From positions 298,191 to 362,190 of the forward strand of contig CAYRES010000001.1 of assembly GCA_964423425.1 (NCBI GenBank): a DNA stretch of 64,000 bases, given 5' to 3'. Numbering within the stretch: position 1 is the stretch's first letter; the number at the start of each line of letters is the position of its first letter. This DNA is from an uncultured Gaiellales bacterium (lineage in GTDB: Bacteria > Actinomycetota > Thermoleophilia > RBG-16-64-13). Positions 4,884 to 42,898 of the stretch are shown piece after piece. Under the pieces are notes generated by a model. The model had not been told where the DNA came from, searched no databases, and saw nothing but the letters and a program-made list of their open reading frames with translations. The position numbers were made by a program, and so were the translations under genes.

Positions 4884-5008
4884 TGTGGTCTTCGGGGTCG
4901 GGTGCGATTCCCTACCGGCGGTGAGAGCCCGCGAGCGACGCTGAGGCGCGCAGACCAGGTGGAATCCCTGGGCCGACAGTGACAGTCTGGACGAGAGAAG
5001 ACCGAGCC
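4884..5008 (+). promoter_or_regulatory. FMN riboswitch (RFN element) upstream of the rib operon
   Basis: GGTCTTCGGGGTCGGGTGCGATTCCCTACCGGCGGTGAGAGCCCGCGAGCG...GACCAGGTGGAATCCCTGGGCCGACAGTGACAGTCTGGACGAGAGAAGACC matches the conserved RFN core. P1 pairs GGTCTTC with GAAGACC. It lies directly 5' of ribD. Confidence 0.85.
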
Positions 5009-16889: not shown

Positions 16890-17246
16890 GTGCCCGGGCG
16901 ACAACCGTCCTACGAGGCGGCAGGCATCTGGGGGCAAGTCCGGAAGAGAGGCCCCATTGTGGGCGAGTCAACCACTTTTCACTGCGAGAGCTGTGGGTAT
17001 CGTTCTGCAACTGTGCGCTGGGGAGTGAGCGCCTCCAACCCCCGCCGCAGATTTCTTCCGGCTCACTGCGCGCATTGTCGCGAATACGTCGAGATAGACA
17101 TCACAGGGGCCGATATTCTCGTCGACGTCATCTGTTGCCCCATCTGCGGAGAGGAAGTGTTCTTCATCGACAGAGCCGAGTCCTATCGGTGCCCACGTTG
17201 CGAAGGGCCCGGTCTCAAGCTGACACAGGGACCAGCCTATTGGTAG
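16890..17246 (+). CDS. double zinc-ribbon protein, function unknown
   Basis: Four CxxC pairs (CESCG, CAHC, CPIC, CPRC). The true start may be the internal GTG near 16962. Confidence 0.5.
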   Translation: MPGRQPSYEAAGIWGQVRKRGPIVGESTTFHCESCGYRSATVRWGVSASNPRRRFLPAHCAHCREYVEIDITGADILVDVICCPICGEEVFFIDRAESYRCPRCEGPGLKLTQGPAYW

Positions 17247-17273: not shown

Positions 17274-17522
17274 ATGCAGATCATAGTTCAAGAGGGCAGG
17301 GCCATAGTCAGCCTGCGCTTCCCCATCCAGGCCCACGACGACGCGCTTCGCACCACCTCCATAAACGAGATCACTGATACGGTCAAGGCATACTACCGCG
17401 ATCATGAGCTCATCCGGGTGGAGATGAAGGAGGGCACCATCGACGTGGTTCCGTCGGCCATTTCCGGTGTGTTCTGGATCGAGAAGGGGCGGCGGTATCA
17501 GCTCAAGGTCACCGGTGGTTGA
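17274..17522 (+). CDS. hypothetical 82-aa protein
   Basis: ATG follows GGAAGGGTAG. Beta-rich sequence with no recognised family. Confidence 0.45.
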   Translation: MQIIVQEGRAIVSLRFPIQAHDDALRTTSINEITDTVKAYYRDHELIRVEMKEGTIDVVPSAISGVFWIEKGRRYQLKVTGG

Positions 17523-17640
17523 CGGAGAAGCGCCTCAGGCGTTGCCCCTCCCCCTACGAATAACACGCCCACTGGGCTACAATGATTGACTCCATGCTGG
17601 GCGTGTCATATCCGGTTCACAAGGTATCGTGAGCATGGCT

Positions 17641-17671
17641 GCCGTCGCCTGAGTGACGGCGTTTTTGTTGG
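17641..17671 (+). terminator. terminator-like hairpin plus U-tract in the EF-G-paralog leader
   Basis: GCCGTC-gcctgagt-GACGGC followed by GTTTTTGTTGG. It lies 70 nt upstream of the EF-G-like start and 120 nt downstream of the previous gene. Confidence 0.45.
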
Positions 17672-17740
17672 AGAAGGAAGGTGCACGGTGGGCGGGCGCT
17701 CCAGTCCGCGGCCGGCCCGGACGAATCTGAGGAGGATTCG

Positions 17741-19828
17741 ATGTCGCTCTTTGACCCGGCGAGAATTCGTAATGTCGCTGTTGTAGGCCACCGCGGGGCC
17801 GGGAAGACGTCGCTCATCGAGGCTCTCCTTTTCACGAGTGGGGCCAAGAACCGTCTGGGTCACGTCGTTGACGGCACCACGGTCATGGATTACGACGATG
17901 ACGAGATCAGACGGCAGATGACCATCTCGGCGGGCTTGGCCCACGTGGAGTGGAACAAGACCAAGGTCAACCTGGTCGACACCCCTGGAGAGGCGTCCTT
18001 CATCAACGACTCGCTTGCGAGCCTCGGGGTGGTCGATGCGGCGCTCATGGTGGTGAACGCCGTCACCGGGGTCGAGGTACAGACCGAGAGGGTGTGGAAG
18101 AAGGCCTCCGAGCTGGGCATAGGGTGCATGGTCGCCCTCAATATGATGGACAGGGAGCGCGCCCATTTCGACGAGGCCTTGGCCTCTCTGCGCGACAGGC
18201 TTGACCCGGCGGTTGTCCCCCTCCAGATCCCCATCGGCCAGGAAGAAGGCTTTCGGGGAGTCGTCGACCTTCTCGAGATGAAGGCCTACGTGTACACGGA
18301 TGACTCCGGCAAGGCACAGCGGGAGGACATCCCGGGCGACCTCACTGAGGCTGCCGAGAAGGCGAGGGAGGAGTTGATCGAGGCGGTAGCCGAAGTCGAC
18401 GACGCTCTCATCGAGAAGTACCTCGAGGGTGAGGAGATCTCCCTCGAGGAGCTGGCGGCAGCGCTGCGGAGCGGAGTGCGTGATCGGATGCTCTTCCCCC
18501 TCGCACTGATCTCGTCCACAAAGAACATCGGCACCGACAGGCTGCTCGAGGCGACGGTCGGCGCAGTACCTTCTCCCGCCGACATGGGACCGCGGAGGGT
18601 GTCTTCGGGTGATGGTTCCGAAGAAGTGGATGTTCTACCCGATCCAGGGGAACCATCGTCTCTGGTCGTCTTCAAGACTCTGTACGACCAATTCTCTGGG
18701 CGCATCAACCTCGTCCGCATTTTCTCGGGCCGCATAGGCACCGACACCCATCTCGTCAATGCCCGCAACGGTGAGCGTGAGCGCACTGGCAACATCTTGG
18801 TGGTGCAGGGGAAGGAGACCAAGGGGTTGGATGAAGCCGGAGCGGGCGATATGGTTGCTCTCGCGAAACTCAAAGATACCGGCACGGGCGACACCCTGAG
18901 CGACGCCTCGCGTCCCGTGAGGTTCCGTCCCCACGAGTTCCCCCCTCCGGCGATCTCTTTCGCTCTCGAGCCCAAGAACAAGGGCGACGAGGAGAAGGTG
19001 TCGGGGGCGCTTCGCCGCCTCTCCGAGGAAGATCCGGCCATGCAGCTTCGTTTCGATCAACAGACCAAGGAGATGATCATCTCCGGCACGAGCCAGGTGC
19101 AGGTCGAGGTCATACTCGAGAAGATGCAGCGCCGCTTCGGTGTGGAGGTCAACCTCAAGCCCCCGCAGGTGCCCTACCGGGAAACCATACAGCGCTCAGC
19201 CAAAGCCCAGGGCAGGCACAAGAAACAGACGGGCGGCCGCGGGCAGTTCGGAGATTGCTGGATCGAGATCTCTCCCGCCAGCCGTGGAGAGGGCTACTCG
19301 TTCGAGGATGCCATCTTCGGAGGATCCATCCCTCGCAACTTCATCCCCGCTGTGGAGAAGGGCATCGTCGAGGCCATGGAGCGCGGTGTGGTGGCCGGAT
19401 ATCCGGTGGTTGACGTCAAAGTGAAGCTCTACGACGGCTCCTACCACACGGTCGACTCCTCTGAGCTCGCTTTCAAGTTGGCCGGTGCACTGGCCCTGAA
19501 CAAAGCCATGGAAGCTGCCTCTCCGGTGCTCTTGGAGCCGGTCATGAACGTCGAGGTCATCGTGCCCGAGGAGAACCTGGGTGACATCATGGGCGACTTG
19601 TCGAGCCGGCGGGGCAGACCGCAGGGCAGTGAGAGCATGGGGGAGATGAACATCATTCGGGCGCAGGTACCCTTGGCCGAGATGCTCACCTATGCCCCGC
19701 AGCTTCGTTCCATGACCGGAGGTAGGGGTTCGTTCACGCTTGAGTTCGACCACTACGAGGAAGTACCCGCGCACATGGTGGAGAAGATCGTTCAGGAAGC
19801 GAAGGCCCGGGAGAGCGCTGAGGGGTAG
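17741..19828 (+). CDS. elongation factor G family GTPase (divergent paralog)
   Basis: G1 GHRGAGKTS, and EF-G domain II-V architecture is recognisable throughout. ATG follows SD GAGGAGG. Switch II reads DTPGE rather than DxPGH, and G4 reads NMMD rather than NKMD. Confidence 0.85.
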   Translation: MSLFDPARIRNVAVVGHRGAGKTSLIEALLFTSGAKNRLGHVVDGTTVMDYDDDEIRRQMTISAGLAHVEWNKTKVNLVDTPGEASFINDSLASLGVVDAALMVVNAVTGVEVQTERVWKKASELGIGCMVALNMMDRERAHFDEALASLRDRLDPAVVPLQIPIGQEEGFRGVVDLLEMKAYVYTDDSGKAQREDIPGDLTEAAEKAREELIEAVAEVDDALIEKYLEGEEISLEELAAALRSGVRDRMLFPLALISSTKNIGTDRLLEATVGAVPSPADMGPRRVSSGDGSEEVDVLPDPGEPSSLVVFKTLYDQFSGRINLVRIFSGRIGTDTHLVNARNGERERTGNILVVQGKETKGLDEAGAGDMVALAKLKDTGTGDTLSDASRPVRFRPHEFPPPAISFALEPKNKGDEEKVSGALRRLSEEDPAMQLRFDQQTKEMIISGTSQVQVEVILEKMQRRFGVEVNLKPPQVPYRETIQRSAKAQGRHKKQTGGRGQFGDCWIEISPASRGEGYSFEDAIFGGSIPRNFIPAVEKGIVEAMERGVVAGYPVVDVKVKLYDGSYHTVDSSELAFKLAGALALNKAMEAASPVLLEPVMNVEVIVPEENLGDIMGDLSSRRGRPQGSESMGEMNIIRAQVPLAEMLTYAPQLRSMTGGRGSFTLEFDHYEEVPAHMVEKIVQEAKARESAEG

Positions 19829-19870
19829 GGAGTACCAGAGCGGCGATACACGGGTGGAGAAGGAAAGTAG

Positions 19871-19915
19871 GTGGCGGCCCTCGCCGGAAGGCGAGGGCCG
19901 CCACCATTCTTTGTG
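19871..19915 (+). terminator. intrinsic terminator after the EF-G paralog
   Basis: Perfect 15-bp stem GTGGCGGCCCTCGCC-GGAA-GGCGAGGGCCGCCAC followed by CATTCTTTGTG. Confidence 0.6.
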
Positions 19916-20013: not shown

Positions 20014-20877
20014 ATGGACGAAGGCAAGAGCAGGCGCGTGAGCGAGCTTCTCGAACACGGGTTCGACGGTTTTTCGCGCTCCCAGAAGGCCGTCGCACGC
20101 TACATCATCGACCACCTGGAGGAGATTGGATACCTGAGTGCCGAGGAGTTGGCCCGCAAGGGTAATACCTCGAGTTCCACTGTGGTCCGCTTTGCGCAGT
20201 CTCTCGGCTTCGCCGGATATCCGGAGCTGCAGAAGGCCGCCCGCGAGGAGTATCGCCTGGGTGCGAGCACGCGGCCCATGGTGCACAGCGACCAGTTGCT
20301 GTTCGTGGTGGAGGAGGATTTCCTCACCAGGGCCCTTCGCACCGACATCCTCAGCCTGGAAGAGACGCTGGCGAAGAACACGTTGGCCGAGTTCGACCGG
20401 GCGGTGGAGATCCTTGCGCACGCCGGCCAGCTGCTCATCGTGGGCATGCATGAAGCCGCGTCCCTCGCGCGTCATGCCGCGTATGTGTTCGAGCTTCTGG
20501 GTGTCGCAACCCACGTGGTGGAGGATGGTTCGGAGGCACATCACGCCCGTCTCCTCCAGCTCGGGCCGGGTGACGCCCTCATGGCCATCGGTTTTCGGCG
20601 TGCGCACCGCCTCACCGTCCTCTTCACCGAGCAAGCGGCCACCCGGGGTGTCGGCACGGTGGTCATCACCGACAACAGTCTCTCCGAGTTGGCCGGCAAG
20701 GGTGACGTGACCCTACTCACCGACATCGATTCCACCTTCTTCGCCCATTCACTCGTGGGTCCGCTCAGCTTGATCGGCGCGCTCGCCGCGGCTGTGTATG
20801 CACGCGACCCGGAGATGTTCGAGAGGCGCCTGCAGGATCTGCGCCGGCAGATAGACGAGTCGGGTTGGCTGAAGTAG
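20014..20877 (+). CDS. MurR/RpiR family transcriptional regulator (HTH plus SIS domain)
   Basis: N-terminal HTH_6-like segment (RSQKAVARYIIDH...ELARKGNTSSSTVVRFAQSLGF) and a C-terminal SIS fold (LLIVGMHEAASLA...). Confidence 0.85.
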   Translation: MDEGKSRRVSELLEHGFDGFSRSQKAVARYIIDHLEEIGYLSAEELARKGNTSSSTVVRFAQSLGFAGYPELQKAAREEYRLGASTRPMVHSDQLLFVVEEDFLTRALRTDILSLEETLAKNTLAEFDRAVEILAHAGQLLIVGMHEAASLARHAAYVFELLGVATHVVEDGSEAHHARLLQLGPGDALMAIGFRRAHRLTVLFTEQAATRGVGTVVITDNSLSELAGKGDVTLLTDIDSTFFAHSLVGPLSLIGALAAAVYARDPEMFERRLQDLRRQIDESGWLK

Positions 20878-42665: not shown

Positions 42666-42898
42666 GCGGTGGTGCGTGGGGGGGTTTGTGGGAGAAATGG
42701 CCCTGTGATACATTTGAGGTGCTCGACCTTGTTCGTGATCTGCTGCAATCTTGAGCCAACACATTCGAATCGGGAGGTCGGCTCTTCCGGTCGGTGGAAC
42801 GACCCTCCGGTGGCCGCCACCCACCTGCTTAGGCAGGTTCAAGATTCCTCCAGACACGGCAAGGTGGAGCATTTTCTTTTCCTTGATGGGGGTGCGGC

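Follow-up and report, generated by a model that had tools for sequence, protein, structure and literature searches.

The gene at 17741..19828 (+) of the stretch analysed here, 64,000 nucleotides from a contig of an uncultured Gaiellales bacterium (GenBank assembly GCA_964423425.1, contig CAYRES010000001.1, positions 298,191 to 362,190; hereafter the window), encodes a paralog of elongation factor G (EF-G) which, judged by its sequence, belongs to the EFG II (EF-G2) subfamily, within a sub-group of Thermoleophilia and related Actinomycetota. The catalytic centre of its G domain has been remodelled and afterwards fixed by selection, and its domains IV and V, decoding-site loops included, are conserved to the same degree as in ordinary EF-G. 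By analogy with studied proteins, it probably acts as a slow, GTP-sparing translocase and/or as a long-dwelling, ribosome-occupying factor beside canonical EF-G. The subfamily has been known since 2011, with EF-G2 proteins from three species studied so far; the sub-group of Thermoleophilia, Solirubrobacterales and Rubrobacter, marked by an acidic switch-II residue, a GHRG P-loop and an N[MH][ML]D G4 motif, is without a characterised member and, by sequence comparison, is nearer to canonical EF-G than to any characterised EF-G2.

Gene, fold and family placement

The open reading frame (ORF) spans 17681-19828 on the plus strand, the true start being the ATG at 17741, with a Shine-Dalgarno sequence, GAGGAGG (17729..17735, +), located 5 nt upstream; a AGGCGAGGAGGA block is kept before the ATG in orthologous loci. 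The coding sequence of 695 amino acids plus stop was annotated as an EF-G2-type paralog from the ORF list, Pfam and NCBIfam matches, signature residues and an AlphaFold2 model. The product has the architecture G (with G'), II, III, IV and V, and all five EF-G domains were matched by Pfam (GTP_EFTU, EF-G_D2, EFG_III, EFG_IV and EFG_C). An earlier, sequence-only reading of this DNA had placed the protein in the EF-G family across its full length, as both the five Pfam domains and an end-to-end phmmer alignment to EF-G structures in the PDB bear out. The AlphaFold2 model, obtained with a family alignment as input (predicted local distance difference test 92.8, predicted template modelling score 0.85), superposes best on ribosome-bound EF-G, with template modelling (TM) scores of 0.94 to 7n2v and 0.91 to 7pjv, and reaches 0.90 against ribosome-bound Mycobacterium smegmatis EF-G2 (9k0z). 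An identical protein is present on contigs of several independent samples.

Among the NCBIfam models, the best match was NF009381 (PRK12740.1-5, subfamily 'elongation factor G'; 916.1 bits, cutoff 583). The canonical EF-G equivalog TIGR00484 was also passed (725.5 bits, cutoff 659.4); this model therefore does not discriminate the paralog from fusA, which explains why homologs are named plain 'elongation factor G' in public records. Matches to the actinobacterial (mycobacterial-type) EF-G2 equivalog NF009377 (637.3 bits, cutoff 890), the Bacteroides EF-G2 model NF058620 (582.2 bits, cutoff 1000) and the tetracycline ribosomal protection model NF012153 (327.8 bits, cutoff 775) all fell short. 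In the PDB search, Staphylococcus aureus EF-G scored 624 bits and the characterised EF-G2 proteins 504, 491 and 474.

The EFG II subfamily is defined by five 'type I' positions (Margus, Remm and Tenson, 2011, PLoS One 6:e22789), which were mapped by alignment to the 1WDT sequence from the PDB (in 1WDT numbering, P-loop sites Gly16 and Leu25 and domain II sites Thr291, Gly333 and Lys352). All five signature residues are present in the protein, as G16, L25, T313, G357 and K376; at these positions canonical EF-G, represented for comparison by Dictyoglomus, Gluconobacter and two low-GC unknowns, carries A, T (T/L among representatives), I/V, A and G. The domain II signature residues were matched in 112-138 of 140 relatives. 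Switch I is relaxed from RGITI to RQMTI with the Mg-coordinating Thr kept, Ser being commoner at this position in the subfamily (106/148). In a neighbour-joining tree of 53 taxa and 688 columns, which is distance-based only and built with spdEFG sequences not included, every bootstrap (100/100) separated four canonical EF-G from the protein, from Thermus thermophilus EF-G2 and from the rest of the relatives. Because of the five signature residues and this separation, the protein is assigned to EFG II. The clusters closest to it have in common GHRG, an acidic residue in switch II and a G4 without Lys.

Remodelling of the catalytic centre

The register of the motifs was fixed by a phmmer search against all PDB chains, in which S. 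aureus and T. thermophilus EF-G aligned nearly gap-free from end to end (E ~1e-186). In place of the canonical series AHIDAGKTT/RGITI/DTPGH/NKxD, the protein has GHRGAGKTS/RQMTI/DTPGE/NMMD. The G1 motif or P-loop, GHRGAGKTS (residues 16-24; 17786..17812, +), lies opposite AHIDAGKTT in the PDB alignment, with Gly16, Arg18 and Gly19 for canonical Ala, Ile and Asp. Switch I (G2), RRQMTI (residues 57-62; 17909..17926, +), located by column counts, corresponds to canonical ERGITI and retains the Mg-coordinating Thr61. Switch II (G3), DTPGEASF (residues 80-87; 17978..18001, +), corresponds to DTPGH[VI]DF and carries Glu84 at the position of the catalytic His: the DTPGE at nt 17978-17992 is aligned as nlvDTPGEasf opposite niiDTPGHvdf, a His to Glu replacement at residue 84. 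The G4 motif, NMMD (residues 134-137; 18140..18151, +), is aligned as alNMMDr opposite vNKMDk, with Lys replaced by Met135 and the guanine-specifying Asp137 retained. The sequence-only reading had reported DTPGE, NMMD and GHRGAGKTS at these places and had allowed that the motif might be mis-registered; the register is unambiguous against the PDB EF-G proteins, its motifs and coordinates are right, and the His is truly replaced.

The essentials of nucleotide binding are intact, namely GxxxxGK[ST], the switch-I Thr61, D80-x-P-G83 and the G4 Asp137. The remodelled residues are the P-loop Ile-Asp (to Arg-Gly), the switch-I Glu-Arg-Gly-Ile (to Lys/Arg-Arg-Gln-Met), the switch-II His-Val-Asp (to Glu-Ala-Ser) and the G4 Lys (to Met). 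In canonical factors, those positions serve the hydrophobic gate, the coordination of the metal bridging to the sarcin-ricin loop (SRL), and catalysis.

The closest homologs (n = 120; 69-74% identity), which derive from Thermoleophilia, Actinomycetia or Actinomycetota metagenome-assembled genomes where named, all preserve DTPGE, GHRG[AST]GKTS and NM[ML]D (120/120), as they do the longer DTPGEASF and D137 (120/120 each). By column counts, R18, G19, Q59, M60, E84, A85, S86 and M135 each occur in 118-120 of the 120; in switch I, the changes G to Q and I to M are found in 118-120/120, and the following residue is Thr in 110 and Ser in 10. The altered active-site residues are also kept in the orthologous loci of 17 GTDB species. 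Being fixed across the 120 closest homologs, the substitutions are neither sequence errors nor decay. Between 49 and 72% of the columns of each domain are at least 95% conserved in these homologs.

The divergence from canonical EF-G is unevenly distributed along the protein. Identity to canonical EF-G was 0.34 in the G core, 0.30 in domain II and 0.40 in domain III, against 0.65, 0.49 and 0.62, respectively, among canonical proteins, whereas in domain IV (0.51 against 0.52) and domain V (0.51 against 0.50) the two values were alike. Both domain IV tip loops contact the codon-anticodon helix. Tip loop 1, KQTGGRGQFGD (residues 495-505; 19223..19255, +), is invariant in the clade and matches canonical QSGGRGQYG, with Q496, G498, G499 and G501 invariant also among 58 diverse relatives; tip loop 2, GSYHTVDSSE (residues 566-575; 19436..19465, +), likewise does not vary in the clade, and its H569, V571 and D572 are invariant in the same 58 relatives.

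The switch-II position across the subfamily

Relatives were sought exhaustively with HMMER among 1.84 billion cluster representatives, which yielded 150 diverse ones at 37-54% identity. In 143 of these, the residue aligned with the switch-II His was Tyr in 60, Phe in 36, Asp in 12, Glu in 4 and His in 8, the remainder having small residues; four of the eight His-bearing relatives are clearly canonical EF-G (AHIDAGKTT/RGITI/DTPGH). Scanning the GTDB with a single genome for each species returned at least 595 related loci, and the switch-II His was found in none of the best 80, which were examined for the motif. Among the GTDB loci, Glu occurs in Thermoleophilia and Solirubrobacterales, Asp in Rubrobacter, many Desulfobulbales, Thermodesulfobacteriota and Myxococcia, and Tyr or Phe in Acidobacteriota, Methylomirabilota, Bacillota, Chloroflexota and Nitrospirota. 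The missing His is thus a family-wide trait of EFG II and Glu the flavour of the Thermoleophilia lineage, not a singular event, since His is replaced in nearly every EFG II member. The description of DxPGH as universally conserved, on which the sequence-only reading had leaned, does not hold for this subfamily.

We also considered whether basic residues in the P-loop covary in general with an acidic switch II. Such covariation was suggestive in the representative set and contradicted by Desulfobulbales-type loci, which combine Asp with GHG[NSG], and was kept as a clade-specific association.

Proposed function and alternative explanations

According to the proposed reading, the paralog would bind GTP and dock in the ribosomal factor site and A site as EF-G does, and the SRL would be unable to trigger fast hydrolysis or release of inorganic phosphate (Pi) via Glu84. 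If Glu84 indeed cannot mediate fast SRL-triggered hydrolysis, the protein would be a slow translocase or a long-dwelling factor: translocation would be slow and GTP-sparing and/or the dwell on the ribosome long, with ribosome-activated hydrolysis slow or absent. It would be used alongside canonical EF-G, probably in nutrient limitation or stress, and its expression may be gated by a terminator-containing leader that separates the gene from the upstream yceD-rpmF operon. Such a role is favoured over that of a purely inhibitory protein because domains IV and V are constrained as in canonical EF-G.

Several precedents are consistent with this proposal. Bacteroides EF-G2 reportedly translocates slowly without GTP hydrolysis. 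In Escherichia coli EF-G, the H91E substitution leaves the dissociation constant for GTP unchanged, and slows ribosome-stimulated hydrolysis (1.9 vs 202 s-1) and Pi release (0.25 vs 28 s-1) about 100-fold each (PMC4532990); in EF-G His mutants translocation persists, with a ribosome dwell of seconds (PMC12775393). M. smegmatis EF-G2, with His replaced by Tyr and an altered P-loop, has no ribosome-dependent GTPase and no recycling activity; the trapping of ribosomes during stress has been proposed as its role (bioRxiv 10.64898/2026.05.25.727771). When carbon is limiting in Bacteroides, fusA2 is induced and fusA declines (PMC6989115). The sequence-only reading had predicted a GTP-binding factor that is hydrolysis-impaired or differently regulated: impaired ribosome-activated hydrolysis is a reasonable prediction in view of E. 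coli H91E, but the loss of His does not by itself decide the activity, as the two Tyr-bearing EF-G2 proteins differ in this respect.

Some considerations weigh against the proposed function. The role of the sub-group is taken from precedent rather than from biochemistry of its own, and T. thermophilus EF-G2, which has Tyr and no His, reportedly shows GTPase activity that depends on the ribosome as well as translocation, so that an alternative catalytic arrangement may exist. Moreover, transferring function from the characterised EF-G2 proteins is an extrapolation, because the protein is nearer to canonical EF-G (624 bits to that of S. aureus against 504/491/474) and both curated EF-G2 equivalog models failed. 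The companion canonical fusA in the same genome is presumed from a literature rule, namely a survey of 305 genomes in which every lone EF-G was EFG I and no EFG II occurred without a second EF-G. Finally, the regulatory role of the leader is conjecture, its structural support being confined to the terminator stem and two orthologous loci having no leader.

It is conceivable, although unlikely, that the protein is a still-active GTPase with alternative catalysis, in which Glu84 would act as a water-orienting general base, Arg18 and Lys/Arg57 would supply positive charge or direct contact with the SRL phosphate, and hydrolysis would be intrinsic or otherwise gated, not lost. The GTPase activity reported for the His-less T. 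thermophilus EF-G2 makes such a solution, involving Glu84 and Arg18, possible, and the coordinated change and complete fixation of R18, G19, K/R57, Q59, M60, E84, A85, S86 and M135 resemble redesign and not relaxation. In addition, a hand tally of the representative set found R/K at P-loop position 3 in about half of the acidic clusters and in a few percent of the others. The pairing of Arg with an acid is however not general, because the Desulfobulbales-type relatives pair Asp with GHG[NSG] P-loops and a normal NKMD, and H91E was the most defective of the His substitutions tested in E. coli.

A re-engineered GTPase with a charge-swapped centre (Arg18, Lys/Arg57, Glu84 and Met135) and leader-controlled expression appears less probable still. 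Its hydrolysis would be SRL-independent or differently gated, or its nucleotide selectivity altered, for example towards insensitivity to (p)ppGpp; if this were true, translation could go on in starvation when canonical EF-G is inhibited.

We regard as improbable a dedicated ribosome-recycling EF-G that works with ribosome-recycling factor, as do Borrelia EF-G2, mitochondrial EF-G2 and Pseudomonas aeruginosa EF-G1A. A division of labour between paralogs is documented, and domains IV and V, which contact the recycling factor, are well conserved here; but the specialised paralogs are spdEFG2/mtEFG2 or EFG I rather than EFG II, they keep the catalytic His (His145 in mitochondrial EF-G2) and the G motifs that are absent from the protein studied here, and M. 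smegmatis EF-G2, an EFG II member, cannot recycle.

That the gene encodes the housekeeping or sole EF-G of the organism, merely divergent and supporting normal GTP-driven translocation and recycling, is very unlikely, because EFG II was always accompanied by another EF-G in the 305 genomes surveyed. The score above the TIGR00484 cutoff (725 against 659 bits), the public naming of the homologs as 'elongation factor G' and the canonical-like domains IV and V would suit such a factor, and tblastn searches with the protein and with canonical EF-G found no second EF-G in the 64-kb window or in 87 related loci, nor was one found in the flanks. Against it stand the replacement of canonical residues in all of G1, G2, G3 and G4, the full set of EFG II signatures with the 100/100 separation from canonical EF-G, the location of the gene after yceD-rpmF and not between rpsG and tuf, and the 100-fold slower hydrolysis of E. 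coli H91E. The signatures, the tree and the replaced motifs agree in this respect with the sequence-only reading, which had denied that the gene was a housekeeping fusA.

A role in antibiotic resistance through ribosome protection, as in the Tet(M)/Tet(O) proteins of the same superfamily, was rejected as extremely unlikely: the full-length NCBIfam tet_protect match of 328 bits is far under the cutoff of 775, the EF-G-type tip loops of domain IV are intact, and in the chromosomes of uncultured Actinomycetota from soil, sediment and digesters the gene sits in a conserved order of housekeeping genes that has no mobile-element context. A decaying pseudogene or sequencing artefact, for which nothing speaks beyond the unusual motifs, has practically no probability and is refuted by the conservation data (altered residues in 120/120 homologs and the 49-72% of columns per domain at or above 95%), along with the intact 695-codon ORF, the strong Shine-Dalgarno sequence, the identical protein in several independent samples and the confident AlphaFold2 model.

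Genomic context and leader region

Upstream of the EF-G2 gene lie, in order, yceD, rpmF (encoding L32; 16694-16875), a 118-aa ORF and an 82-aa ORF, and downstream an RpiR/SIS regulator, pdxS, pdxT, yebC and ruvCAB; the same gene order is found in relatives at ~70% identity. The gene is therefore outside the str operon (rpsL-rpsG-fusA-tuf), as EFG II genes are. Neither tuf nor any other translational GTPase gene was found within the 64-kb window, whose ends carry priA-def-fmt and VanW/DUF881, not ribosomal operons.

A conserved leader or intergenic element occupies 17523-17740 and separates the EF-G2 gene from the small ORF upstream of it. It comprises, in order, a -10-like TACAAT or TAGACT, a GGCATTG block (GGTATCG in the window), a GACAT block, a hairpin, a second and variable hairpin, and the AGGCGAGGAGGA ribosome-binding site. 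The first hairpin (17640..17669, +), picked up by a terminator scan about 80 nt upstream of the start codon, is GC-rich, sequence-conserved and terminator-like, with the form GGACGCTGCC-loop-GGCGGCGTCC followed by a U-tract; an equivalent occurs in 13 orthologous loci, with compensatory changes at 3 of 11 pairs. Among related loci, the element was also found in L005 (9818-10000) and L006 (9736-10000), as well as ahead of the EF-G2 start in L008, L010-L015, L019, L020, L026 and L031. L009 and L017 carry a variant form, and L016 and L018, whose intergenic regions are short, have none. The Solirubrobacterales and Rubrobacter loci, whose upstream context differs, lack the leader motif, and no further copy of it was found elsewhere in the window. 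RNAalifold and covariation support in the leader is limited to the terminator stem. A structured riboswitch was considered and rejected, there being no Rfam match at the gathering threshold (chance match 0.65 at E <= 1). The element could be a terminator of the yceD-rpmF operon, a small RNA, or an attenuator gating EF-G2 expression. The same terminator scan located a further hairpin, a perfect one of 16 bp that resembles a terminator on either strand and lies 42 nt past the stop codon (19870..19905).

Regarding the neighbouring genes, the 118-aa ORF (16890-17246, +) is Cys-rich, with several CxxC pairs and a sub-threshold HypA-like zinc-ribbon match, and the 82-aa ORF (17274-17522, +) has no Pfam match. 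Both are syntenic in L005 and L006; in L011 the 82-aa ORF is absent and the leader directly follows rpmF. Directly downstream of the EF-G2 gene, at 20014-20877 (+), an RpiR-family regulator (HTH_6 plus sugar-phosphate-binding SIS) is kept in L001, L005 and L006; this adjacency recalls, by analogy, the carbon-status control of Bacteroides fusA2. In the Solirubrobacterales loci L029, L043 and L059, an EF-G2 ortholog with DTPG[ED] and NMLD follows a sigma-factor gene, with neither the rpmF context nor the leader motif. Elsewhere in the window, a flavin mononucleotide riboswitch (RF00050, 107.7 bits; 4884-5006, +) precedes the riboflavin genes ribBA and ribH, and a 6S/SsrS RNA gene (RF00013, 72.3 bits) lies at 42718-42874 (+).

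Implications

EF-G2-type paralogs are widespread, and the three that have been studied behave differently, one as an active GTPase, one as an inactive stress factor and one as a GTP-independent slow translocase. The sub-group described here spans Thermoleophilia, Solirubrobacterales and Rubrobacter, taxa that are abundant in soil, sediment and digesters. It offers a naturally fixed equivalent of H91E in a G domain otherwise nearer to canonical EF-G than that of any characterised EF-G2, and hence a natural test of how far translocation needs ribosome-triggered GTP hydrolysis, with a bearing on the GTP economy of starving bacteria. A practical consequence concerns inference of fusA copy number and marker-gene phylogenies, which could take the wrong paralog, given that TIGR00484 and public annotation say plain 'elongation factor G'. 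The case would gain in interest only if the remodelled centre proved to be catalytic by some novel means or if the genome truly had no canonical fusA.

Comparison with known systems

The protein resembles EFG II as described by Margus, Remm and Tenson (2011; 'EF-G2' or 'EF-G-like', CDD PRK12740) in its five domains, type-I signatures, relaxed RGITI, absence of the switch-II His and location outside the str operon, and in the concentration of its divergence in domains I-III, with IV and V conserved. It departs from that description in the G4 motif, which was NKxD and conserved in the 2011 paper and is N-M-[ML]-D in the present clade. It also differs from the actinobacterial sub-subgroup of that paper (mycobacterial type, G2 'qqRSV') in having RQMTI and in failing NF009377.

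T. thermophilus EF-G2 (TTHA1498; 1WDT/2DY1) is likewise an EFG II protein, comparable in size and colinear in fold (Foldseek TM 0.80-0.84), with a GHxGxGKTxL P-loop and no His after DxPG. The two proteins share 40% identity, and differ in that the Thermus protein has Tyr (DAPGYGDF) and a TKLD G4, in place of the Glu and NMMD found here; its GTPase and translocation activity may or may not hold for the Glu variant. M. smegmatis EF-G2 (MSMEG_6535; 9K0Z/9K10) is an actinobacterial EFG II in which the catalytic His and the SRL-contacting P-loop residues are replaced, as in the present protein, and the structures agree well (TM 0.90). Unlike the latter, which has Glu84, keeps His17 and carries NMMD, it has Tyr98, a GPSGG P-loop that has lost its His, and T-K-L-D as G4; its match is weaker than that of canonical EF-G (491 vs 624 bits) and below the curated equivalog threshold.

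Bacteroides thetaiotaomicron EF-G2 (BT_2167; 7UVP/8DMF) is present alongside an essential canonical fusA and is induced when the cells are starved of carbon. It is more distant, with 718 amino acids, 34% identity and an NF058620 score of 582 bits, well under 1000, and 7UVP was not the top match in a PDB search with a relative as query. Its lack of GTPase is said to be due to a 26-residue region unique to the Bacteroides protein; the present protein is colinear with canonical EF-G and has no comparable insertion. E. coli EF-G H91E (Koripella et al., 2015, Sci Rep 5:12970) carries the identical residue change at the apex of switch II, but is a laboratory single mutant with an otherwise canonical G domain, whereas in the protein described here seven or more additional changes are fixed around the sites for the gamma-phosphate, the SRL and guanine.

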